Virus record (IMG/VR): IMGVR_UViG_2681813421_000003
Origin: a virus
Lineage: Duplodnaviria > Heunggongvirae > Uroviricota > Caudoviricetes
DNA: 12,717 nucleotides
Strand: one strand, 5' to 3'
A program made the translations under genes and the position numbers. The notes beneath the pieces were generated by a model. That model ran no database searches and was not told the origin of the DNA. It saw nothing but the letters and a program-made list of their open reading frames with translations. Below, piece by piece: positions 1 through 12,140 of this stretch. Numbering within the stretch: position 1 is the first letter of the stretch; each line of letters begins with the position of its first letter.

Positions 1-123
1 GAGCTGGTGGAGACGCGGGAACGACTGGTGAGAGACGCTGATGATTTTGTCGCAGTGGCGATCGCTGGTTTCAATCAGATGAATCGTGGTGGCCCGGCAG
101 GAAATGCCTTGGTGATGCACTAA
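1..123 (+). CDS. 3' end of an upstream gene (partial, unknown function)
   Basis: Frame 1 is open from the window edge to TAA at 121-123 (…ELVETRERLVRDADDFVAVAIAGFNQMNRGGPAGNALVMH*). Its position directly upstream of the replication initiator suggests a cII/YdaT-position gene, but there is no recognisable motif. Confidence 0.35.
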   Translation, partial: ELVETRERLVRDADDFVAVAIAGFNQMNRGGPAGNALVMH

Positions 124-146
124 AAGCACGGTGTTCGGAGTTTTTT

Positions 147-1094
147 ATGAGCAGCAAGCTTCATGGTCTTGTCTGGGAAGGGTGTGCCTTCACCGGCATG
201 ATCTTATCCAGGGTGGCAGTTATGGCTCGCCTTGCAGATTACAGCAATGACGAAGGTGTGTCATGGCCTGCAGTGGAGACCATTCGTCGTCAGATTGGGG
301 CAAAGAGTGAATCAACGGTTAAAGCTGCGATAGCAGAACTGGAAAAGAACGGCTGGCTGACGAAGGAGGAACGTAAGGTCGGTGGGCGTAATGAAAGCAA
401 TATCTACCGTCTTAATGTGGAAAAACTCGAAGCAGCAGCAGCGGCGGCGCGTGAGGCATATAAACCGAAAAGAAAAATTAGCCAGGCAAAAAATGACCCG
501 TCAAATATTGCCCCCTCAACGGTTAACCCATCAAATTTTGATGGATCAACCGTTGATAAAAAACAGTCGGATAGGGGGGCGATGGTTGGCCCCGATCCGT
601 CAGTATTAAAACCTGATCCGTCAGATAAAAGATCTTTTCGTCCGGAAGCTTCGCAACCGGACATGCAGACGGCTGAACAGGATTTTTTAACCCGACACCC
701 TGACGCGGTTGTGTTCAGTGCGAAAAAACGCCAGTGGGGTAGCCAGGAAGATTTAGCGTGTGCGCAGTGGATCTGGGGGCGAATCGTGAGTCTTTACGAG
801 CAGGCCGCCAGCGATGATGGCGAGATTTCGCGACCGAAAGAACCCAACTGGACCGCATGGGCCAACGACGTGCGCACAATGCGGATGCTGGATGGCAGAA
901 CTCACAGACAAATTTGTGAAATGTTTGGTCGGGTGCAGCGGGATCCATTTTGGGTAAAAAATATCATGAGTCCGTCAAAGCTTCGCGAAAAATGGGATGA
1001 ACTGGTTATCCGCCTGGGGCGTTCGTCTGTACAGCGTTGTGTGAATCATATTTCTGAGCCGGATACCGAAATTCCGCCGGGATTCAGGGGGTGA
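147..1094 (+). CDS. phage replication initiation / primosomal protein (lambda O-like, DnaT-like), N-terminal helix-turn-helix
   Basis: 315-aa ORF with a GGAG Shine-Dalgarno 6 nt upstream. The N-terminus (…VSWPAVETIRRQIGAKSESTVKAAIAELEKNGWL…) is typical of phage replication-initiator HTH domains. It lies immediately upstream of a DnaC-like loader and contains iteron-like repeats internally, as lambda O does. From memory it resembles Rac YdaU. Confidence 0.8.
   Translation: MSSKLHGLVWEGCAFTGMILSRVAVMARLADYSNDEGVSWPAVETIRRQIGAKSESTVKAAIAELEKNGWLTKEERKVGGRNESNIYRLNVEKLEAAAAAAREAYKPKRKISQAKNDPSNIAPSTVNPSNFDGSTVDKKQSDRGAMVGPDPSVLKPDPSDKRSFRPEASQPDMQTAEQDFLTRHPDAVVFSAKKRQWGSQEDLACAQWIWGRIVSLYEQAASDDGEISRPKEPNWTAWANDVRTMRMLDGRTHRQICEMFGRVQRDPFWVKNIMSPSKLREKWDELVIRLGRSSVQRCVNHISEPDTEIPPGFRG
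495..630. repeat. iteron-like direct repeats, putative origin of replication embedded in the initiator gene
   Basis: Four ~16-bp related repeats: gacccgtcaaatattg (495-510), aacccatcaaattttg (525-540), gatccgtcagtattaa (594-609), gatccgtcagataaaa (615-630), plus the palindrome gatcaaccgttgat (544-557). An A/T-richer stretch follows. The arrangement mirrors ori-lambda inside gene O. Confidence 0.5.
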
Positions 1095-1100
1095 CGTGTC

Positions 1101-1847
1101 ATGAAAAACATTGCGGCAGGTGGTGTTCTTGAGCGTATCCGTAAGCTGGCCCCACAGCATGTAATCGCGCCGTACCGGACAGTGGACGAGTGGCGCGAGT
1201 GGCAACTAGCAGAAGGGCGAAAACGTAGCGAGGAAATCAACCGCCAGAATCGCCAGTTGCGGGTGGAAAAAATCCTGAATCGTTCGGGCATCCAGCCTCT
1301 GCACAGCAAATGCTCGTTTGCGAATTATCAGGTGCAGAATGACGGGCAAAAACACGCGCTGAGCCAGGCAAAATCCATCGCTGACGAACTGATGACCGGG
1401 TGCACGAATTTTGTGTTCAGCGGTAAGCCGGGTACCGGAAAGAACCACCTTGCAGCCGCCATTGGTAATCATCTTCTGGCGAAAGGTCGCAGCGTGATTG
1501 TGATAACGGTGGCTGATGTGATGCTGGCGTTACACAACAGCTACGACAACAAAAACTCAGGCGAAAAATTTTTACAGGGGTTGTGTGATGTTGACCTGCT
1601 TGTCCTGGATGAAATCGGAATGCAGCGGGATACGCGCAACGAGCAGGTCACGCTGAACCAGATAGTCGACCGCAGAACGGCTTCGATGCGCAGTGTCGGA
1701 ATGCTGACAAACCTGAACCACGTAGCGATGAGTACGCTTCTTGGTGAGCGTGTAATGGACCGCATGGTCATGAACGGTGGTCGCTGGGTGAATTTTAACT
1801 GGGAGAGCTGGCGTTCGAATGTCAGGCACCTGAGGGTTGTGAAGTAA
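1101..1847 (+). CDS. DnaC-like replicative helicase loader (AAA+ ATPase)
   Basis: 248 aa with a Walker A motif (FSGKPGTGKNHLAAAIG) and Walker B (DLLVLDEIG). It is colinear with E. coli DnaC from MKN… through …LGERVMDRM…NFNWESWRS. From memory it resembles Rac YdaV. Confidence 0.9.
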   Translation: MKNIAAGGVLERIRKLAPQHVIAPYRTVDEWREWQLAEGRKRSEEINRQNRQLRVEKILNRSGIQPLHSKCSFANYQVQNDGQKHALSQAKSIADELMTGCTNFVFSGKPGTGKNHLAAAIGNHLLAKGRSVIVITVADVMLALHNSYDNKNSGEKFLQGLCDVDLLVLDEIGMQRDTRNEQVTLNQIVDRRTASMRSVGMLTNLNHVAMSTLLGERVMDRMVMNGGRWVNFNWESWRSNVRHLRVVK

Positions 1848-1868
1848 TTTTGTCCGGAGGAAATTTTA

Positions 1869-2630
1869 ATGGAAACCGTTTTTGACGCACTGAAAGCAAT
1901 GGGAAAAGCCACATCCATAGAACTTGCTGCGCGACTTGATATCAGTCGTGAAGAAGTGCTGAACGAACTATGGGAACTGAAAAAGGCTGGTTTCGTTGAT
2001 AAAAGCGCGTACACCTGGCGTGTGGCTGATAACAACGTTCAGCAGGAACAGCCAGCGCAGGCAGAACTGCCGGAAGAAACCTCCACGGCGACAGTAGCGA
2101 AAATCTCAGAGTGCGATTTAACCGCGACGATTGAACAACACGGACCACAAACGGCTGATGAGCTGGCTACATTGTTTGGTACCACATCACGCAAAGTGGC
2201 TTCAACGCTGGCAATGGCAATCAGCAAAGGACGCCTGATTCGTGCAAATCAGGACGGTAAATTTCGTTACTGCATGCCGGGCGATAATTTACCAGCAGAG
2301 CCGAAAGCAGCATCGGTAGCGGAAACTGATGGTAAAGCCTTTCCTCAGCCTGCATGTGTTGCGTTACCAGTACAGGAGGCTGCAACACAGGAAGATATTA
2401 AAACAGAAACTGTGGCGGACATTGTGCAGTCGCTGCCATCGTTTACTGAAACGCGAGCGGATGACCTGGTTTTACCATCGCTGCATATGGCAAACCGCGA
2501 ACTGCGTCGGGCGAAAAGTCATGCCCAGAAGTGGGAACGAGTCTGCGCCGCGCTGCGGGAGCTGAACAAGCACCGGGATATTGTTCGACATATTTTCGAT
2601 TCCTCCAGTCATATTGTGTCGGAAAAGTGA
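1869..2630 (+). CDS. hypothetical phage protein with N-terminal winged-helix-like domain (YdaW-position gene)
   Basis: 253-aa ORF with GGAGG 8 nt upstream. The N-terminal ~45 aa (…[29 protein letters not shown]) look like a wHTH; the rest is acidic and low-complexity. No function can be assigned from sequence. Confidence 0.65.
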
Positions 2631-2646
2631 TTCCTGGGGAGGGCTT

Positions 2647-3069
2647 ATGGCAAAAGTTTTTACACAAGAAGAGCGAGAAAAAATTAAAGGGCAGGTTGTT
2701 GAACTCGTACGCCAGAGTGGGCGTGAGACGTTACGGCAACTGGAAGTCAAGACAGGTGCGACAAGATATCTGATGAGCGTTCTCGCAAGAGAGCTGGTTG
2801 CCAGCGGCGATGTATACAACTCTGGTTACGGGTTATTCCCGTCTGAACAGGCGCGTAAGGACTGGCAAAATGCCCGTAAAAAACTATCAAGGGCAAAGGT
2901 GAAGAAACCGGTTGTGGTTGATCCTGACCTTATCTGGTCATTACCCGACGGAGAAATACGTCGTTACGACAGGCGTCTGAACATAATCTGTCGCGAGTGC
3001 CGGAAGAGTGAGGTTATGCAGCGAGTGCTGGCGTTTTATCAGGGTAATTTTCAGGAGGTGATGGCGTGA
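2647..3069 (+). CDS. hypothetical nin-region-like protein
   Basis: The tracked ORF 2581-3069 was trimmed to the ATG at 2647, which has GGGGAGGG 4 nt upstream. 140 aa, basic, with a C-terminal ICRECRK motif. Its stop overlaps the next gene's start (GTGA). Confidence 0.55.
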   Translation: MAKVFTQEEREKIKGQVVELVRQSGRETLRQLEVKTGATRYLMSVLARELVASGDVYNSGYGLFPSEQARKDWQNARKKLSRAKVKKPVVVDPDLIWSLPDGEIRRYDRRLNIICRECRKSEVMQRVLAFYQGNFQEVMA

Positions 3070-3479
3070 GGGTGAGGGTTTATATCGCTGGTCCGATGAC
3101 CGGGTATAAAAATTTCAACCGTGAGGCGTTCCACAAGGCGGAAGAGGAACTGAAACGGGAAGGGCATACAGTCTTGAACCCGGCAGTACTTCCGGACGGG
3201 CTGACACAGCCACACTACATGGATATCTGCATGGCGATGATTCGTTGCGTGGATGCGATTTACATGCTGCAAGGCTGGCAGCGGTCAGCAGGCGCTAAAG
3301 CGGAACTGGCTCTGGCGGAGAAGCTAGGGCATGTGGTTGTTTTTCAGAGGGGGCGATATGCCGATTCTCTGGTTTCAGGAGGTGTGGGAAAAAGAAATGT
3401 GGGAAGGTCTTGTGATTGTGGCCGAAACAGTTCTTTTATTATGGTCTGTGATTGCGTGTATTTTTATGATTTATTGTGA
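3066..3479 (+). CDS. DUF4406-like / nucleoside 2-deoxyribosyltransferase-like protein
   Basis: GTG start with AGGAGG 8 nt upstream. The N-terminal ~95 aa (VYIAGPMTGYKNFNREAFHKAEEELKREGHTVLNPAVLP…GWQRSAGAKAELALAEKLGHVV) match the family. The reading frame then runs ~40 aa further than expected for this family. Confidence 0.6.
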   Translation: MRVRVYIAGPMTGYKNFNREAFHKAEEELKREGHTVLNPAVLPDGLTQPHYMDICMAMIRCVDAIYMLQGWQRSAGAKAELALAEKLGHVVVFQRGRYADSLVSGGVGKRNVGRSCDCGRNSSFIMVCDCVYFYDLL

Positions 3480-3483
3480 ATGA
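3358..3483 (+). CDS. putative small hydrophobic peptide (41 aa), unannotated short ORF
   Basis: ATG at 3358 with AGAGGGGG 4 nt upstream. Encodes MPILWFQEVWEKEMWEGLVIVAETVLLLWSVIACIFMIYCE, with one predicted transmembrane segment. It overlaps the 3' tail of the DUF4406 ORF in another frame. Below the 60-aa cut-off of the ORF track. Confidence 0.25.
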   Translation: MPILWFQEVWEKEMWEGLVIVAETVLLLWSVIACIFMIYCE

Positions 3484-3510
3484 TGTGAATCTCGCGGTGG
3501 CCACTGAATT

Positions 3511-3553
3511 GCAACCATTACCCCCTGTGATGTAATTGTGGGGTAATGGTTGC
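3511..3553. repeat. perfect 14-bp inverted repeat with 15-nt spacer (hairpin or protein-binding site)
   Basis: gcaaccattacccc (3511-3524) pairs with ggggtaatggttgc (3540-3553). No T-run follows, so it is not a canonical intrinsic terminator. It sits in the intergenic gap upstream of the 3587 gene. Confidence 0.6.
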
Positions 3554-3586
3554 GCAGGCATAGCGACAGGACTGGATGAGAAAAAT

Positions 3587-4009
3587 ATGACGAAATTTAC
3601 CAGAGAGCAATTGATTGCTCATGCTAATGAAAGTGTGAAATCCATGAAATTTGCTGCGCGACAGACCGTGTTTAAGACTTCAAGAGTTGCCATTGAAATG
3701 GATCTTGCGCTTGCCCGTATTGCGCTTGCCTCACTTGAAGCAATGCCAGTTGCATGGTCCTGTGCTCACAATATGGTTTTGTTCAATGCTGAATCTGTTG
3801 CGGCATACGCAAAACACTCAGCCATTGCGCCAAAACCCCTGTACGCTGCGCAACCGGCATCACTTTCACATGAGGAAGAGTTGACAATGCTGGTTAAACA
3901 ATTGGTAAGTCAGTTGAAAAAAGCGAAACCAGATTGCAAATTACCGGATATGGCGATGGGGTATCTGGAGCGGAATGGGCTGATAAGCGCGGAGGATGTT
4001 TTACGATGA
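3587..4009 (+). CDS. hypothetical phage protein
   Basis: The tracked ORF 3536-4009 was trimmed to the ATG at 3587 (MTKFTREQLIAHANE…), because the 3536 start lies inside the inverted repeat. 140 aa, with no recognisable motif. Confidence 0.5.
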   Translation: MTKFTREQLIAHANESVKSMKFAARQTVFKTSRVAIEMDLALARIALASLEAMPVAWSCAHNMVLFNAESVAAYAKHSAIAPKPLYAAQPASLSHEEELTMLVKQLVSQLKKAKPDCKLPDMAMGYLERNGLISAEDVLR

Positions 4010-4089
4010 CCTGGCCGGAGGCATTCACAACGACAGGAATTGCAATGGCGGCAGCACTTGTTGTGTATTCGATTTGCCGCTGGGGATAA
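4006..4089 (+). CDS. putative small hydrophobic peptide (27 aa), translationally coupled
   Basis: ATGA stop/start overlap with the upstream gene. Encodes MTWPEAFTTTGIAMAAALVVYSICRWG. Below the ORF-track cut-off; there is no homology evidence. Confidence 0.2.
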   Translation: MTWPEAFTTTGIAMAAALVVYSICRWG

Positions 4090-4096
4090 AAACGGT

Positions 4097-4124
4097 TTGC
4101 AGTGAAAGGGGAGTTAAGTAGAAT
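4097..4124 (+). promoter_or_regulatory. putative sigma70 promoter of the hok transcript
   Basis: TTGCAG (4097-4102), a 16-nt spacer, then TAGAAT (4119-4124). The predicted start near 4131 places the 5' end exactly at the segment that is complementary to the 3' end of the locus. Confidence 0.4.
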
Positions 4125-4300
4125 TGCTGCGGGTGCTTGAGGCTATCTGCCTCAGGCATGAACACCAAAAGGCAGATAGAGAAAAGCCCCAGTTAACATT
4201 ACGCGTCCTGCAAGACGCTTAACATTAATCTGAGGCTCAATCTATGTCTCACAAATGTAGGTTAGCCTCTTACGTGCCGAAAGGCAAGGAGAAGCAGGCT

Positions 4301-4456
4301 ATGAAGCAGCAAAAGGCGATGTTAATCGCCCTTATCGTCATCTGTTTAACCGTCATAGTGACGGCACTGGTAACGAGGAAAGACCTCTGCGAGGTACGAA
4401 TCCGAACCGGCCAGACGGAGGTCGCTGTCTTCACAGCTTACGAACCTGAGGAGTAA
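4301..4456 (+). CDS. hok: Hok/Gef-family type I toxin (small membrane-depolarising peptide)
   Basis: 51 aa, MKQQKAMLIALIVICLTVIVTALVTRKDLCEVRIRTGQTEVAVFTAYEPEE, with the hallmark transmembrane helix followed by the conserved Cys and the RTG motif. It matches HokD/RelF-type peptides from memory. AAGGAG lies 9 nt upstream. An in-frame upstream ATG at 4244, with a GAGG Shine-Dalgarno, would give a 70-aa mok-like extended product. Confidence 0.85.
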   Translation: MKQQKAMLIALIVICLTVIVTALVTRKDLCEVRIRTGQTEVAVFTAYEPEE

Positions 4457-4463
4457 GAGACCA

Positions 4464-4485
4464 GGCGAGGGAGAAATCCCTCGCC
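4464..4485 (+). other. stable stem-loop with GAAA tetraloop in the hok 3' UTR
   Basis: ggcgaggga (4464-4472), loop gaaa, tccctcgcc (4477-4485): a 9-bp stem directly after the hok stop codon. Confidence 0.6.
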
Positions 4486-4524
4486 ACCTCTGATGTGTCA
4501 GGCATCCTCAACGCACCCGCACTT

Positions 4525-4546
4525 AACCCGCTTCGGCGGGTTTTTC
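4525..4546 (+). terminator. intrinsic terminator (hok 3' end); first copy of a duplicated 20-mer
   Basis: Stem cccgc / gcggg with a ttcg loop (4527-4540), followed by TTTTT. The 20-mer aacccgcttcggcgggtttt (4525-4544) recurs identically at 5372-5391. Confidence 0.7.
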
Positions 4547-4671
4547 GTCGCATAATGAGGTTGTAATTTTAGCTACCATTAGACTATCCTAAGGATCTCA
4601 AACAGATCTATTTTGCATCAAATTTGGTGCATGGCTTTGCCAATAATCGGAAAACAAAAGGACTCATTAGT

Positions 4672-4851
4672 ATGAGCTGCCCACTCAAAAAACACACGCG
4701 GTTGAGTATTCCGCCTCGCGATAAAAGCGTTGTGGCAGTCCCTCGCCCAGCGATTGATGAAAACTGCGCACATCGTGAACAAGTGAAAAATGCTTTTGAT
4801 TTCGGTTTTTCTCGTTATGAGAAAGCCATGGAAGAACTTTCAAAAGTGTAA
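4672..4851 (+). CDS. putative antitoxin partner of the Doc-family toxin (unclassified small protein)
   Basis: 59 aa, from the ATG at 4672 with AAAGGA 9 nt upstream; the tracked ORF begins at 4624 but has no Shine-Dalgarno. It ends 18 nt before the Doc-family gene. Not obviously Phd/YefM-like, so the call rests on position only. Confidence 0.45.
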   Translation: MSCPLKKHTRLSIPPRDKSVVAVPRPAIDENCAHREQVKNAFDFGFSRYEKAMEELSKV

Positions 4852-4869
4852 TGATGGGTATTGTGCTCT

Positions 4870-5355
4870 ATGGCTGAGATTGTTGAAGGAGTGCATTACC
4901 TTACGGTTGATGATCTTGTTGAAATCAATCGTTCCCTAATTGAATTACAGACGCCAGATGAGCCCGTTGGTGTTCTGAGTCCAGATAACTTAAGTTCTTC
5001 TCAGGCCCGTCCCAGCATGGTTCGATGGTATGAACAGACTAATGACATGTTTGTACTGGCATCGGTATTGATTGAAAGTCTGATTCAGAATCATCCGTTT
5101 GCTAATGCGAACAAACGAACAGCTATGATGGCTGGTTACGTCTTCTTGTTGTTGAATGGCTATGAGTTAACAGCACCAGGCGATGAAATCGTGGAAATGG
5201 CAGAGGGACTGGCCTGCAAAACCTATACTCGAGAAGATCTCGAGAACTGGTTGTGTTATTGGTCTCGCGCGTATGACAGCCGGGAATTATGTAAAACAGG
5301 CGCAACTATTGTTTTGTATGAAACTATCAAGCTTAAAATAGAACAGCAAAACTAA
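4870..5355 (+). CDS. Doc/Fic-family (death-on-curing) toxin
   Basis: 161 aa containing HPFANANKRTA, which fits the Doc-type motif HxFx(D/N)(A/G)NKR. Overall size and layout are typical of Doc toxins. Confidence 0.8.
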   Translation: MAEIVEGVHYLTVDDLVEINRSLIELQTPDEPVGVLSPDNLSSSQARPSMVRWYEQTNDMFVLASVLIESLIQNHPFANANKRTAMMAGYVFLLLNGYELTAPGDEIVEMAEGLACKTYTREDLENWLCYWSRAYDSRELCKTGATIVLYETIKLKIEQQN

Positions 5356-5371
5356 AGGTGCTTCCAATGAA

Positions 5372-5398
5372 AACCCGCTTCGGCGGGTTTTGTTTTTT
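5372..5398 (+). terminator. intrinsic terminator after the Doc gene; second copy of the duplicated 20-mer
   Basis: Stem cccgc / gcggg with a ttcg loop (5374-5387), followed by ttttgtttttt. Identical 20-mer to 4525-4544. Confidence 0.7.
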
Positions 5399-5470
5399 CC
5401 TGGCATTCTGGTTTACAATTCGCACGCCAGCCTGAACAACTGGCACCTGCTGCGCCAGCAGAGACAACCG

Positions 5471-5743
5471 ATGGCGCACAAAAACAAATTTCACAATTCT
5501 GATACCGACCTTGCCATCCGGCACGGGCGGCGTTCACACGCATTTAAAACCGACTGGTACCAACACCCACCATGTACTGAAGAACAGGCCGAATGGCTAA
5601 TTCATAACTACCGCAGGCGCGGATACGAGGTTAAGAAAGCCCTCAGCCTCGATTATCGTCACTGGATAATCTATGTCAGGCTCCCTTATTCCGAACGCCC
5701 ACCGCGTCCGTCCCGCACATTCCAGCAACGCATCTGGAGGTAA
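5471..5743 (+). CDS. hypothetical basic protein (orphan ORF at a deletion junction)
   Basis: The tracked ORF 5390-5743 begins inside the terminator, so the first plausible start is the ATG at 5471 (MAHKNKFHNSD…), giving 90 aa. Weak Shine-Dalgarno and no recognisable domain. Confidence 0.35.
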   Translation: MAHKNKFHNSDTDLAIRHGRRSHAFKTDWYQHPPCTEEQAEWLIHNYRRRGYEVKKALSLDYRHWIIYVRLPYSERPPRPSRTFQQRIWR

Positions 5744-5748
5744 CGTGC

Positions 5749-6183
5749 GGGTATTACTTCGACCTGTTCCGGTATCCCAACGGCACTGTTGATGTTTTCC
5801 GTGGCTGGCTGAGCTCACTGGGTAAAACCATTGCCTCAAAAGACGTGATGACCCGCACTGTGAAAATCAGCGGTGTGGGGCGTCCACATCTGGCAGAGGA
5901 AGGCACTGAAACCGTGAGCGTTACCGGGCTGACAGTAGCACCGGCATCTGCCAGTGTAAGAGTGGGAGCAACCACCACGCTGACCTTTACAGTAAAACCT
6001 GACGAAGCCAGTGACAAAGCGATCAGTGTGCATTCGACAGATCCACAGACTGCCACGGTGACCCTGAACGGGCTTGTGGCCACGGTGAAAGGCGTGAAGC
6101 AGGGCAGTGTCAGTATTGTGGGCATGACTTCTGACGGCGATTTTGTGGCAGTGGCTACGGTGGCTGTCAGCGCCGCAGGTTAA
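5749..6183 (+). pseudogene. V: major tail protein V, N-terminally truncated remnant (C-terminal Ig-like/Big_2 part retained)
   Basis: Frame 1 translation …[38 protein letters not shown]… is colinear with lambda gpV (…[39 protein letters not shown]…) through to the C-terminal Ig-like domain. There is no start codon or N-terminal domain; the frame is open from 5635 but similarity begins only around 5750. Confidence 0.7.
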
Positions 6184-6203
6184 CAGGACGATACTCATCA
6201 TTT

Positions 6204-6228
6204 GCCCCGGTTATCCGGGGCTTTTTTG
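6204..6228 (+). terminator. hairpin + T-run between V remnant and G
   Basis: gccccgg ttat ccggggc followed by TTTTTT (6222-6227). Confidence 0.5.
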
Positions 6229-6240
6229 CAGGTGGAGAAC

Positions 6241-6630
6241 ATGATGTTTCTGAAACAGGACACGTTTAATTATGAAAAACAGTCCGTGGTGCTCAGTGAG
6301 CTGTCCGGGCTGCAGAGAATTGAATATCTGACGTTTGTTCAGCAGCGAACGGCAAAGTTTGATGCCGGGGAGGGAGAGCTGCCGGGGGCTGAACGACAGA
6401 TTGCTTTTCTGCGGATGGGGATGGATATCAATGCCTGGCTGGTTTCCCGCTCACTGTGGAATGCGGAACAGTCTCAGGATGTTGAGACGCTTTACGCATC
6501 CGTTATTACAACATGGTCGTATGATGCCCTGGGGGCGGGGGCAGAGATGGTTCTGTCGCTGAGCGGTATGGGAGCCATTGAGAATGCCGGGGATTTGGAG
6601 CATGAGGTGCTGACGCCGGAAAAGTCCTGA
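6241..6630 (+). CDS. G: tail assembly chaperone G
   Basis: MMFLKQDTFNYEKQSVVLSELSGLQRIEYL… aligns with lambda gpG (MFLKTESFEHNGVTVTLSELSALQRIEHL…). The tracked ORF was trimmed to the ATG at 6241; 6244 is an alternative start, with GGAG upstream. Confidence 0.85.
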   Translation: MMFLKQDTFNYEKQSVVLSELSGLQRIEYLTFVQQRTAKFDAGEGELPGAERQIAFLRMGMDINAWLVSRSLWNAEQSQDVETLYASVITTWSYDALGAGAEMVLSLSGMGAIENAGDLEHEVLTPEKS

Positions 6631-6968
6631 CGCGGGAAATGCAGTTTGTCATGCGGCTTGCCCGGGAGTTCCGGCGGGCAGACTGGCGGCGGATGCTGTC
6701 GGAAATGTCGGCCACTGAGCTTGGTGAGTGGGGCGATTATTTCCGGATGCAGAGCTTCAGTGATGTGTGGATGGATGCGCAGTTTGCCTCGCTGAAGGCA
6801 TTGATCGTGAGAATGGTGTCCGGCAGCAGTGATGCTGTGGTGGCTGATTTCAGCCTTTTACCGGAAGAGAACGGGATACCGGAGCGAACGGACGAAGAAC
6901 TGATGCATCTTGGGGAAGGTATTTCCGGAGGTGTGCGTTATGGACCAGATAGCCAACCTGGTCATTGA
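6618..6968 (+). CDS. T: tail assembly chaperone T segment, expressed as G-T fusion by -1 frameshift
   Basis: An ORF in the -1 frame relative to G overlaps the G 3' end with no stop between. A candidate slip site is G GAA AAG at 6618-6624, just before the G stop codon. The arrangement is the conserved lambda G/GT one. Confidence 0.6.
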   Translation, partial: GKVLTREMQFVMRLAREFRRADWRRMLSEMSATELGEWGDYFRMQSFSDVWMDAQFASLKALIVRMVSGSSDAVVADFSLLPEENGIPERTDEELMHLGEGISGGVRYGPDSQPGH

Positions 6969-9900
6969 TTTGGGGATTGATGCGGCAGAGTTTAAAAATG
7001 AAATTCCCCGTATCAAAAACCTTCTGAATGGTGCAGCCAGCGATGCAGAACGGTCTTCTGCCCGTATGCAGCGTTTTATGGAGCGTCAGACTCAGGCCGC
7101 CCGGCAGACAACGCAGGCGGCTTCTTCGGCTGCAACAGCCGCATCCGTCCATGCGCAGACGGTGGAGAAGAACGCACAGGCCCATGAACGCATGGCCCGT
7201 GAGGTGGAGCAAACCCGCCAGCGCATGGAGGCACTGAGCCAGAAAATGCGCGAGGAACAGGCGCAGGCCATGGCTCTGGCGGAGGCTCAGGATAAAGCGG
7301 CTGCTGCGTTTTATCGTCAGATTGACAGTGTGAAACAGGCCAGTGCGGGGCTGCAGGAATTACAGCGTATTCAGCAGCAGATCCGACAGGCCAGAAACAG
7401 CGGCGGGATTGGTCAGCAGGATTATCTGGCGCTGATTTCTGAGGTTACGGCGAAAACCCGTGTTCTTACACAGGCTGAGGAAGAGGCTACCCGACAGAAA
7501 GTGGCGTTTATCCGTCAGCTTAAAGAGCAGGCAACCCGCCAGAATCTTTCATCTTCTGAGTTGCTTCGCGCCAGGGCAGCCCAGCTGGGGGTAAGCGGTG
7601 CTGCAGAAGTGTATATCCGCAAAATGGAGCGGGCAGGAAAAGCCACGCATTCGCTGGGTCTGAAAAGTGCAGCAGCCCGCCAGGAGATAGGCGTTCTGAT
7701 AGGTGAACTGGCCCGCGGCAATTTAGGGGCGCTGAGGGGATCCGGGATAACGCTGGCTAACCGTGCCGGATGGATAGACACACTGATGTCACCGAAAGGC
7801 ATGATGCTTGGCGGGGTTATTGGCGGTATTGCCGCGGCCGTCTATGGTCTGGGTAAAGCCTGGTATGACGGTCAGAAGGAGGGGGAAGAATTTAACCGCC
7901 AGCTGTCGCTGACGGGGCATTATGCCGGAGTCACTGCCGGGCAGCTGTGGGTGCTCAGTCGTGCTATTTCCGGGAATGGTATCACGCAACATGCTGCAGC
8001 CGGTGCGCTGGCTCAGGTGGTGGGGAGTGGTGCATTTCGTGGAGGTGATATCGCCATGGTGGCGAAAGCTGCCGCGCAAATGGAACGTTCAGTGGGGCAG
8101 TCTGTCAGCGACACCATAAGTCAGTTTAAGCGACTGAAGGATGATCCGGTAAATGCAGCCAGGACGCTGGATAATGAACTGCATTTCCTGACTGCCACCC
8201 AGCTTGAACAAGTCCGTGTTCTCGGGGAACAGGGGCGTGCCAGTGATGCTGCCCGGATCGCCATGTCAGCGCTGGCAGAGGAAACCGGTAAACGCACATC
8301 TGATATTGATAATAATCTCAATGCGCTGGGCAGTACGCTGCAAACCTTATCTGACTGGTGGAAGCAGTTCTGGGATGCCGCCATGAATATCGGGCGTAAT
8401 GATTCCCTTGATGCGCAGATTGCGGCGCTGCAGGAAAAAATTCAGCGTGCGAAAAAATCGCCCTGGACAAATGCATCCACCACAGTGGAATACGACCAGC
8501 AGCGCCTTGATGAACTTCAGGAGAAAAAGCGCCAGAAAGATTTACAGGATGCAAAAGCGCAGGCTGAACGAAATTATCAGGAACAGCAGAAACGCCGGAA
8601 TGCTGAAAATGCTGCGCTGAACCGGATGAATGAAACGGAGGCGGCGCGACATCAACGTGAAATTGCGCGCATCAATGCCATGCAGTATGCCGACCAGGCG
8701 GTCAGGGACGCAGCGATACAGCGTGAAAATGAACGTTACAAAAAAGCCATTAAGAAAAAAACATCTGAAAACCGCAATGATGAAGCCACCCGGTTGCTGT
8801 TGCAGTACAGTCAGCAGCAGGCGCAGGTGGAGGGGCAGATTGCCGCCGCCAGACAGTCCGCGGGACTGACCACGGAAAAAATGACAGAGGCGCATAAGCA
8901 GCTTCTGGCCCTGCAGCAGCGTATCAGTGATCTGGCGGGTAAAAAGCTGACAGCAGATGAAAAAAGCGTGCTGGCGCATAAGGATGAGTTGATTCAGGCA
9001 CTGACGCTGCTGGATACAAAACAGCAGGAGCTGCAGAAGCAGACGGCGCTGAATGACCTGAAGAAAAAATCCATTCAGCTTGCCAGCCAGCTGGCGGAAG
9101 AGGAACGGGCTCTGCGTCAGCAACATGACCTGGATATCGCCACAACAGGGATGGGGGATAAACAGCGTCAGCGGTACCAGACACAGTTCAGTCTGCAACA
9201 GAAATATCAGCAGCAAATGGAGCAACTGGAGCGTGACAGTAAACAGAAAGGAACATACGGCTCAGATGAATACCGGGATGCTGAGCAGATGCTGACAGAC
9301 AGTCTTAACCGGCAACTGAACGAAAACAGACATTACTGGCAGGAGCAGGAACTGATGCAGGCAGACTGGAAAAACGGTGCCATGCGGGCGTTTCAGAATT
9401 TTACAGAGAGTGCGGATAACGCGGCAGGTACCGCTGAGCAGATGTTTACAGCGGCATTTAACAGCGCAGGTAATGCACTGGCGACGTTCTGCACCACCGG
9501 AAAACTGAACTTCAAATCTTTTACCGCCTCGCTCCTTTCTGATCTGGCAAAAATCATGTCGCAGATGGCCATGATGCAGGCGGTGAAGGGGATTGGTTCG
9601 GCGTTTGGCTGGGGGAGTGCAGCAGCTGCCAGTGTGACGCCAAATGCGGATGGCGGTGTTTATCAGTCTGCTGATTTGAGTCGCTACAGTGGCACGGTGG
9701 TTAACCGTCCGACGTTTTTTGCTTTTGCAAAAGGCGCGGGTGTGATGGGAGAAGCGGGGCCTGAAGCCATTCTGCCATTGCGTCGTGGTGCTGATGGCAA
9801 GCTGGGTGTTGTGGCGGATATTGGTGGTTCAGGTATGGTGATGTTTGCCCCGCAGTACAACATCGAGATCAATAACGATGGTACGAACGGGCAGATAGGT

Positions 9901-10005
9901 CCGGCTGCCCTGAAGGTGGTTTATGACCTCGGGAAAAAAGCAGCAGCGGACTTTATGCAACAGCAGGCCCGTGATGGTGGTCGGTTAAGTGGAGCATATC
10001 GGTAA
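6940..10005 (+). CDS. H: tail tape measure protein
   Basis: 1021 aa from the ATG at 6940 with GGAGG upstream. Long Q/A/R/E-rich coiled-coil body and a Gly-rich C-terminal region. It lies immediately after G-T and before M, as lambda H does. Confidence 0.9.
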   Translation: MDQIANLVIDLGIDAAEFKNEIPRIKNLLNGAASDAERSSARMQRFMERQTQAARQTTQAASSAATAASVHAQTVEKNAQAHERMAREVEQTRQRMEALSQKMREEQAQAMALAEAQDKAAAAFYRQIDSVKQASAGLQELQRIQQQIRQARNSGGIGQQDYLALISEVTAKTRVLTQAEEEATRQKVAFIRQLKEQATRQNLSSSELLRARAAQLGVSGAAEVYIRKMERAGKATHSLGLKSAAARQEIGVLIGELARGNLGALRGSGITLANRAGWIDTLMSPKGMMLGGVIGGIAAAVYGLGKAWYDGQKEGEEFNRQLSLTGHYAGVTAGQLWVLSRAISGNGITQHAAAGALAQVVGSGAFRGGDIAMVAKAAAQMERSVGQSVSDTISQFKRLKDDPVNAARTLDNELHFLTATQLEQVRVLGEQGRASDAARIAMSALAEETGKRTSDIDNNLNALGSTLQTLSDWWKQFWDAAMNIGRNDSLDAQIAALQEKIQRAKKSPWTNASTTVEYDQQRLDELQEKKRQKDLQDAKAQAERNYQEQQKRRNAENAALNRMNETEAARHQREIARINAMQYADQAVRDAAIQRENERYKKAIKKKTSENRNDEATRLLLQYSQQQAQVEGQIAAARQSAGLTTEKMTEAHKQLLALQQRISDLAGKKLTADEKSVLAHKDELIQALTLLDTKQQELQKQTALNDLKKKSIQLASQLAEEERALRQQHDLDIATTGMGDKQRQRYQTQFSLQQKYQQQMEQLERDSKQKGTYGSDEYRDAEQMLTDSLNRQLNENRHYWQEQELMQADWKNGAMRAFQNFTESADNAAGTAEQMFTAAFNSAGNALATFCTTGKLNFKSFTASLLSDLAKIMSQMAMMQAVKGIGSAFGWGSAAAASVTPNADGGVYQSADLSRYSGTVVNRPTFFAFAKGAGVMGEAGPEAILPLRRGADGKLGVVADIGGSGMVMFAPQYNIEINNDGTNGQIGPAALKVVYDLGKKAAADFMQQQARDGGRLSGAYR

Positions 10006-11540: not shown

Positions 11541-12140
11541 ATGCGTAAATTATGTGCTGTTATTCTGTCCGCAGCCATCTGTCTGTCCGTATCCGGTGCG
11601 CCTGCATGGGCGTCTGAACATCAGTCCACACTGAGCGCGGGGTATCTTCATGCCCGTACGAACGCTCCCGGCAGCGATAATCTGAACGGGATTAACGTGA
11701 AATACCGTTATGAGTTTACGGACACGCTGGGGCTGGTGACGTCATTCAGTTATGCCAATGCCAAAGATGAGCAAAAAACGCATTACAGCGATACCCGCTG
11801 GCATGAAGATTCCGTGCGTAACCGCTGGTTCAGCGTGATGGCGGGGCCGTCTGTACGCGTGAATGAATGGTTCAGCGCGTATGCGATGGCGGGTATGGCT
11901 TACAGCCGTGTGTCGACTTTCTCCGGGGATTATCTCCGCGTAACTGACAACAAGGGGAAAACGCACGACGTGCTGACCGGAAGTGATGACGGTCGCCACA
12001 GCAATACCTCTCTGGCGTGGGGAGCTGGCGTGCAGTTTAACCCGACCGAATCCGTGGCCGTTGATGTCGCTTATGAAGGCTCCGGCAGCGGTGACTGGCG
12101 TACCAACAGTTTCATCGTGGGTGTCGGCTATAAATTCTGA
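11541..12140 (+). CDS. lom: Lom/Ail-family outer membrane beta-barrel protein
   Basis: 199 aa with a signal peptide (…SVSGAPAWA/SE). It is colinear with lambda Lom, including GINVKYRYE, SVMAGP, YAMAG and the C-terminal VDVAYEGSGSGDWRT..FIVGVGYKF. Confidence 0.9.
   Translation: MRKLCAVILSAAICLSVSGAPAWASEHQSTLSAGYLHARTNAPGSDNLNGINVKYRYEFTDTLGLVTSFSYANAKDEQKTHYSDTRWHEDSVRNRWFSVMAGPSVRVNEWFSAYAMAGMAYSRVSTFSGDYLRVTDNKGKTHDVLTGSDDGRHSNTSLAWGAGVQFNPTESVAVDVAYEGSGSGDWRTNSFIVGVGYKF

Follow-up and report, generated by a model that had tools for sequence, protein, structure and literature searches.

What role, if any, does a perfect inverted repeat play in the spacer just upstream of a phage gene? The stretch of viral DNA analysed here, 12,717 nucleotides long and called the window throughout, holds such a repeat at 3511-3553, ahead of a gene that starts at 3587. 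The original prediction, made from the letters alone, offered two roles for it, the operator of a dimeric regulator or an RNA structure that controls the downstream gene. The first of these is supported by none of our tests; the second is plausible, and a stable hairpin is indeed predicted. We set out below what the repeat is, where it lies and how it is distributed, and weigh each possible role against the evidence that bears on it.

The inverted repeat and its predicted fold

The left arm (GCAACCATTACCCC, 3511-3524 on the plus strand) is the exact reverse complement of the right arm (GGGGTAATGGTTGC, 3540-3553, plus strand), and the two enclose a spacer of 15 nt (CTGTGATGTAATTGT, 3525-3539, plus strand); the perfect 14-bp arms and the length of the spacer are thus exactly as first described. 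The stem of 14 bp has a G+C content of 50%, and the centres of the arms are 29 bp apart. A scripted search found this to be the sole perfect local inverted repeat of at least 11 bp (spacer of at most 40) in the 12.7 kb of the window. When the window was shuffled 1000 times with its dinucleotides preserved, a perfect repeat of at least 14 bp (spacer of at most 40) appeared in 0.2% of the shuffles, one of at least 12 bp in 3.5%, and one of at least 10 bp in 35%. The repeat is real and beyond chance, as the original prediction had claimed. It is also non-coding, because stop codons at 3528-3544 close all three plus-strand frames across it.

As RNA the repeat is predicted to fold stably from either strand. 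A 56-nt plus-strand segment folds with -26.9 kcal/mol (z = -4.0; an equally stable fold in 0 of 200 shuffles), and the minus-strand hairpin with -25.4 kcal/mol (z = -4.8); the hairpin formed as DNA has -15.4 kcal/mol. On the plus strand the stem is lengthened slightly by a U-G pair (3510/3554) and by two pairs in the loop, and it is solely through these two weak inner pairs that the loop narrows to 6 nt. The predicted hairpin is kept when it is folded in contexts of 121 nt and 281 nt. It begins 27 nt past the stop codon of a small open reading frame and ends 33 nt before the ATG at 3587, and it makes up most of the 103 untranslated nucleotides that separate the small ORF from the downstream gene. 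The ribosome-binding sites and start codons of both neighbouring ORFs lie outside the predicted pairing. As for control of translation, the stem stops 33 nt short of the ATG at 3587 and is not predicted to pair with the ribosome-binding site of that gene.

An intrinsic terminator was likewise considered and rejected. The 15 bases past the stem contain one T on the plus strand and three on the minus strand, so that neither strand has a T-run; in addition the loop is 15 nt long and the stem, at 50% G+C, is not G+C-rich. These observations bear out both the absence of a T-run and the unlikeness to a simple terminator that had been noted at the outset. A terminator scan of 3000-4700 was silent at the repeat but also missed a canonical terminator at 4525-4548, and the direct count of T residues is therefore the main evidence. 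The scan's failure at 4525 is likely explained by the extension of the stem into the A/T flanks, which consumes the T-run.

A promoter scan found no sigma-70-like promoter overlapping 3511-3553 on either strand. The best arrangement by eye, TTGCAA (3509-3514) and TGTAAT (3531-3536) separated by 16 bases, was rejected as it lacks the essential A at the second position of the -10 hexamer, and at the repeat the minus strand offers nothing comparable. The nearest promoter-like site runs from 3489 to 3460 on the minus strand; two such sites were found, and 1.6 are expected by chance. No Rfam family matched the region 3480-3600 at E <= 1, in a scan that detected sok with 121.6 bits. As judged by eye, the consensus positions of attC, dif, CRP and IHF sites do not appear to fit the repeat, and a literature search for the sequence of the arms returned no match.

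An orphan cassette in a prophage early region

In the window we recognise a defective Rac/Qin-like lambdoid prophage from enterotoxigenic E. coli. Positions 1-5774 are 100% identical to a prophage of the enterotoxigenic strain E1316, and positions 1-4544 are 98.9% identical to a prophage of E24377A, which is also enterotoxigenic. The gene order matches that of the early-right operon of Rac/Qin-like lambdoid prophages, and comprises, all on the plus strand, an O-like helix-turn-helix protein (147-1094), a DnaC/IstB-like ATPase (1101-1847), DUF1627 (1869-2630), DUF977 (2647-3069), the domain-coding part of a DUF4406 gene (3066-3350), whose usual stop is replaced by a cassette junction, an Eaa-like gene (3587-4009) and a full hok/sok locus (4131-4306, recognised by its sok score, with the Hok ORF within 4244-4456). 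The prophage is defective, because Q, the lysis genes and the head genes are missing.

The gene downstream of the repeat starts at ATG 3587 and encodes an Eaa-like protein of 140 aa (phrog_660), which belongs to an early-region family of lambdoid phages and is labelled as a hypothetical protein in RefSeq. The family is large and mosaic, with conserved N- and C-terminal blocks, and the gene at 3587 is genuine. Despite a 23-nt DNA repeat (D10), the N-terminus of the Eaa-like protein has no protein similarity to DUF1627. The genes that flank the repeat are all co-oriented within one early operon, and no promoter-like site lies between them on the plus strand; the repeat is presumably transcribed, given this layout of the operon.

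Several other features of the window deserve a record. An isrK-like match at 4465-4546 stays below threshold (27 bits, with a gathering score of 50) and ends in the first of two identical 20-bp terminator hairpins (AACCCGCTTCGGCGGGTTTT, at 4525-4544 and 5372-5391). These hairpins flank an 827-bp insert that contains a 59-aa ORF (4672-4851) and a Fic/Doc toxin gene (4861-5355). The prophage of E24377A and an O157 prophage have one terminator copy and lack the 827-bp insert; from this comparison of sequences, it looks as though the Fic/Doc cassette was inserted by recombination at the terminator. At 5774/5775 the early region, identical to that of E1316 up to 5774, is fused directly to lambda-like tail genes, which include G (6202-6630), T (6639-6968), the tape measure gene (6910-10005), M, L and Lom (11541-12140). 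Inside the O-like replication gene, positions 516-556 hold an inverted repeat with 20-nt arms (TCAACGGTTAACCCATCAAA and TTTGATGGATCAACCGTTGA) that are 90% complementary around a 1-nt spacer. A related motif is found at 301-320, and the two together look like origin iterons.

The small ORF and the hairpin form an orphan mosaic cassette of 227 bp (about 3351-3577, plus strand) between the DUF4406 and Eaa-like genes. Homology to phage Rac-SA53 ends at 3350, which marks the left boundary, and homology to the Eaa/DUF551 gene of an O157 prophage begins at 3578, nine bases before the ATG, which marks the right one. Both boundaries coincide with gene starts at the junction. The left boundary is a recurrent mosaic junction: in other prophages it is followed by one of at least ten different genes, all of which begin at an identical position, and the start of the small ORF takes the position that the start of the next gene has in every other variant of the junction. 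The 3' end of DUF4406 reads TTTTCCAGGAGG-N6-GTGA at the junction, with a stop that overlaps the next start (loci L150-L229; 3330-3360 in the window). Other cassettes at this junction likewise finish in hairpins. The motif TTTCAGGAGGTG of the DUF4406 3' end is found again at 3049, 3373 and 6922 in the window.

The left junction also carries a poly-G tract (3351-3355, plus strand), likely the ribosome-binding site of the small ORF. Its length differs among near-identical copies, which have 5, 6 or 8 G or read GGGGAGGGGG; this could be sequencing noise or slipped-strand variation. As the tract changes in length, so does the reading frame at the C-terminal end of the DUF4406 ORF (3066-3479), and the RefSeq calls are inconsistent as a result: the ORF runs on to 137 aa in the window, measures 116 aa in E24377A and carries a pseudogene label in E1316.

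The existence of mosaic junctions on both sides of the repeat raises the possibility that the stem-loop itself promotes the exchange of ORFan cassettes, in the manner of the PeSL stem-loops that mediate shuffling in T4-type phages (PMC2839356). The Fic/Doc cassette, flanked by two identical terminator hairpins of which related prophages have one, could be cited in favour of such a role. However, each prophage has one copy of the repeat and no partner copy, the breakpoints themselves map to ribosome-binding-site motifs near 3350 and 3578 and not to the repeat, and there is no consensus promoter. Among the roles discussed here, we give this one the slimmest chance.

The small ORF (3359-3483, plus strand) is unannotated, begins with the ATG at 3359 after the G-tract, and encodes a hydrophobic, membrane-like peptide (MPILWFQEVWEKEMWEGLVIVAETVLLLWSVIACIFMIYCE) of 41 codons. 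It appears to be translated, and to be transcribed as part of the operon. The exact protein is recorded as 'putative membrane protein' on 194 contigs; it matches no protein family, and no diverged relative was found among 5.8 billion proteins. A 15-nt deletion in one variant leaves the frame intact. In three haplotypes the change A3483G removes the stop codon and adds seven codons up to a TGA at 3505-3507, and the substitutions in the ORF are mostly non-synonymous.

The peptide could be taken for a type I toxin-like or membrane-acting product, with the hairpin as a 3' stabiliser of its mRNA or as an upstream element of a minus-strand antisense RNA that starts near 3453. The hydrophobic character of the ORF, its plausible ribosome-binding site and the survival of its frame through the 15-nt deletion would fit a toxin-like module, as would the minus-strand promoter-like site, which is antisense to the 3' part of the ORF, and a neighbourhood rich in toxin-antitoxin genes, with hok/sok and Fic/Doc nearby. 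Nevertheless, the ORF is without a homologue or a family, its substitutions include the loss of the stop codon in addition to being mostly non-synonymous, the antisense promoter match is at chance level, no terminator was found for an RNA of this kind, and no antitoxin RNA in Rfam matches here. We regard a toxin-like module as very improbable. A broader form of the idea, to which we grant even less, is that the small ORF and the hairpin together are an autonomous and previously undescribed mini-cassette for a toxin-like or exclusion peptide. The hairpin would then set the expression of the peptide, acting via RNA processing or via an antisense transcript that starts beside the hairpin, and the G-tract would be a possible phase switch.

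Distribution, variation and the possible role of the repeat

The cassette was found by a blastn search for distant matches in 36 of 5426 complete E. coli genomes, with all copies at least 98% identical. It occupies a single place in each genome, apart from one genome with two. In viral contigs there are 24 near-identical copies, along with two unrelated chance matches, and a search of metagenomes via the small ORF recovered four contigs with near-identical copies. No copy was found among 50,697 phage records or 72,556 plasmids. Species-representative genomes gave 36 matches, all in unrelated phyla, where about 10 are expected by chance under an estimate that assumes uniform composition; we take their number to be roughly at the level of chance. 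No diverged copy was found in any of these collections (E. coli genomes, phages, plasmids, viral contigs, species representatives and metagenomes). The single-copy occurrence and the restriction to 36 of 5426 genomes led us to reject a REP/BIME element, a MITE, an IS end or any other dispersed repeat.

The original prediction had made its case depend in part on conservation in related elements, and here the result is negative: the repeat is absent both upstream of other Eaa-like genes (54 loci in viral contigs and the O157 prophage) and from other DUF4406 junctions. The palindrome is single-copy, and the window has no other copy of an arm. Most of those 54 Eaa-like loci directly abut the preceding gene. 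About 60 nt upstream of position 1501 in loci L093 and L094, the stretch before an Eaa-like gene consists of AGGAGG, a hairpin (GCCGCCCGAAAGGGCGG), 8 nt and an ATG. This hairpin is not the one at 3511-3553, although its position is analogous; it has no T-run, and it may shorten the distance from the ribosome-binding site to the start codon.

Variation was scored over 55 copies, which represent 12 haplotypes. The recurrent polymorphisms are in the loop, namely T3536C and, where arm and loop meet, a C-run lengthened by one C. The arms show three changes, of which one contig has 3512 C>A and 3544 T>G and a second contig has 3519 T>G; each disrupts a pair without compensation, and they come from single draft assemblies in which sequencing errors are possible. 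Three of the 28 arm positions vary, compared with 13 of 199 positions elsewhere in the cassette (Fisher p = 0.43), and these data speak neither for nor against constraint. Covariation lends the stem no support, because the copies are nearly identical and the few changes in the arms break pairs.

One explanation is that the repeat is a selectively neutral palindrome without a function of its own, which persists only because the lineage is young. Such a palindrome could have arisen by a mutational event such as template switching or quasi-palindrome correction, or could have arrived with the cassette from its donor. The near identity of all copies, confined as they are to a few E. coli genomes and 24 viral and four metagenome contigs, agrees with this interpretation, and so do the arms, which are no better conserved than their flanks and whose mutations are uncompensated, the relatives of both flanking genes that lack the repeat, and the failure of the repeat to match any known motif, family, promoter or terminator. 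On the other hand, a perfect 14-bp repeat was seen in only 0.2% of the shuffled windows, and this one falls precisely within a non-coding spacer that follows an ORF, a location in which hairpins commonly have a function. Moreover, any such stem in a transcribed spacer folds and alters the behaviour of the RNA somewhat. We consider a neutral palindrome a serious though unlikely explanation, and nearly as likely as an RNA stem-loop with a function.

Another explanation takes the repeat for a DNA operator, whose arms would be bound by a dimeric or tetrameric protein of the phage (DUF977, DUF1627, the O-like protein or YdaT) or of the host; this protein would govern how the Eaa-like gene, or an antisense RNA, is transcribed. 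The perfect symmetry would suit an operator, genes for several winged-helix or helix-turn-helix proteins lie just upstream, the weak minus-strand promoter-like site adjoins the repeat, and transcription factors with palindromic boxes do exist in Rac-type prophages (PMC11879457). However, no promoter overlaps the repeat, and the promoter-like match on the minus strand occurs at chance frequency. The site is single as well, with no further half-sites beyond chance in the window or in 21-25 kb of the E1316 and E24377A prophages (loci L001 and L002). Helix-turn-helix dimers bind operators with short half-sites, which have a centre-to-centre distance of about 10-11 or 21 bp and are often present in several copies; the 14-bp arms seen here, whose centres are separated by 29 bp, are not typical of such dimers. 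Furthermore, the same cassette is found under differing immunity, with a LexA-family CI and Cro in one case and a RelBE pair and another regulator in the other, and the candidate proteins occur in thousands of genomes that do not have the site. An operator is in our judgement improbable, and it is true of the operator, the toxin-like module and the recombination element alike that each fails at least one direct test.

Our preferred, if tentative, reading is that the repeat is an intercistronic RNA stem-loop in the early-right transcript, a decay barrier or a processing site that is carried along with the ORFan cassette. Stable hairpins without a U-tract in intercistronic spacers serve as barriers to 3' exonucleases or as double-strand-specific cleavage sites, and by analogy we infer that the hairpin may affect RNA decay or processing. 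A small ORFan cassette would have recombined into the recurrent mosaic junction of the early-right operon, with the repeat as its 3' trailing element. Once the operon is transcribed, the repeat would fold into a stem-loop of 14-16 bp (-27 kcal/mol) in the 103-nt spacer. Its action would be post-transcriptional: the stem-loop may block 3'-to-5' exonucleases, or may be a processing site for a double-strand-specific enzyme of the RNase III type. In either case the parts of the message before and after the hairpin would have stabilities independent of each other. In favour of this reading are the perfect repeat that exceeds chance, the very stable predicted fold, the non-coding position between co-oriented genes of one operon, the cassette boundaries at gene starts, the hairpins that finish other cassettes at the junction, and the terminator hairpins on both sides of the Fic/Doc insert. 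Against it stand the uncompensated changes and the lack of covariation, arms that are no less variable than the rest of the cassette, the absence of an Rfam match, the distance of the hairpin from the ribosome-binding sites and start codons of its neighbours, and the homologous Eaa-like genes that do without it.

The repeat has little significance beyond annotation; if it is a processing or stability element, it adds another example of genes expressed differentially inside an early operon of a prophage. Of more use is its setting, which shows the way in which short conserved junctions at ribosome-binding sites take up ORFan cassettes in the Rac/Qin-like prophages of enterotoxigenic E. coli.

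Comparison with known stem-loops and palindromes

The repeat is a new instance of a common type of feature and belongs to none of the defined families that we tested. The PeSLs of T4-type phages combine a stem-loop with consensus sigma-70 promoters, terminate transcription strongly and occur in about 50 copies per genome (PMC2839356). Like a PeSL, the repeat forms a stem-loop in a spacer beside an ORFan, in a hyperplastic mosaic part of the genome, and even the layout is similar, with the -35-like TTGCAA overlapping the left arm and the -10-like TGTAAT in the loop. In contrast to the PeSLs, the -10-like hexamer of the repeat lacks the key A, the scan finds no promoter, and the element is single-copy.

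The YdaT box of Rac-type prophages (Rac/CP-933P) is TTGATT-N6-AATCAA (PMC11879457). The repeat shares with it the form of an inverted repeat and a place in a Rac-like early region, here in a prophage with a gene for a YdaT-family protein. It differs in the length of its half-sites (14 bp versus 6 bp) and of its spacer (15 bp versus 6 bp), and its sequence is unrelated; the box was rejected as a match, since TTGATT-N6-AATCAA is absent from 3495-3570. Unlike the YdaT box, the repeat overlaps neither a promoter nor a start codon.

A moron is a gene with its own promoter and terminator that is inserted between two phage genes (PMC3594210). The cassette resembles a moron in that a small extra gene followed by a hairpin lies between genes that are adjacent in related prophages, whereas neither a promoter of its own nor a functional-looking terminator was detected for the small ORF.

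The window itself offers a comparison in its two intrinsic terminators (AACCCGCTTCGGCGGGTTTT, 4525-4544 and 5372-5391). These too are stem-loops that follow directly after an ORF in the phage early region. They have a G+C-rich stem, a 4-nt TTCG loop and a T-run, whereas the repeat has a stem of 50% G+C, a 15-nt loop and no T-run.

Closest to our preferred reading are the stem-loops that act between cistrons as decay barriers or processing sites, such as the REP hairpins of malE-malF and the RNase III sites in the early transcripts of lambda and T7. REP elements are distributed genome-wide, whereas the repeat is single-copy and has no sequence relation to them. The classical substrates of RNase III have roughly 20 bp, whereas the stem of the repeat, a putative processing site, has the shorter length of 14-16 bp. 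What the repeat shares with the REP and RNase III hairpins is a stable fold of similar length and stability, free of a U-tract, in an untranslated spacer between co-oriented genes.
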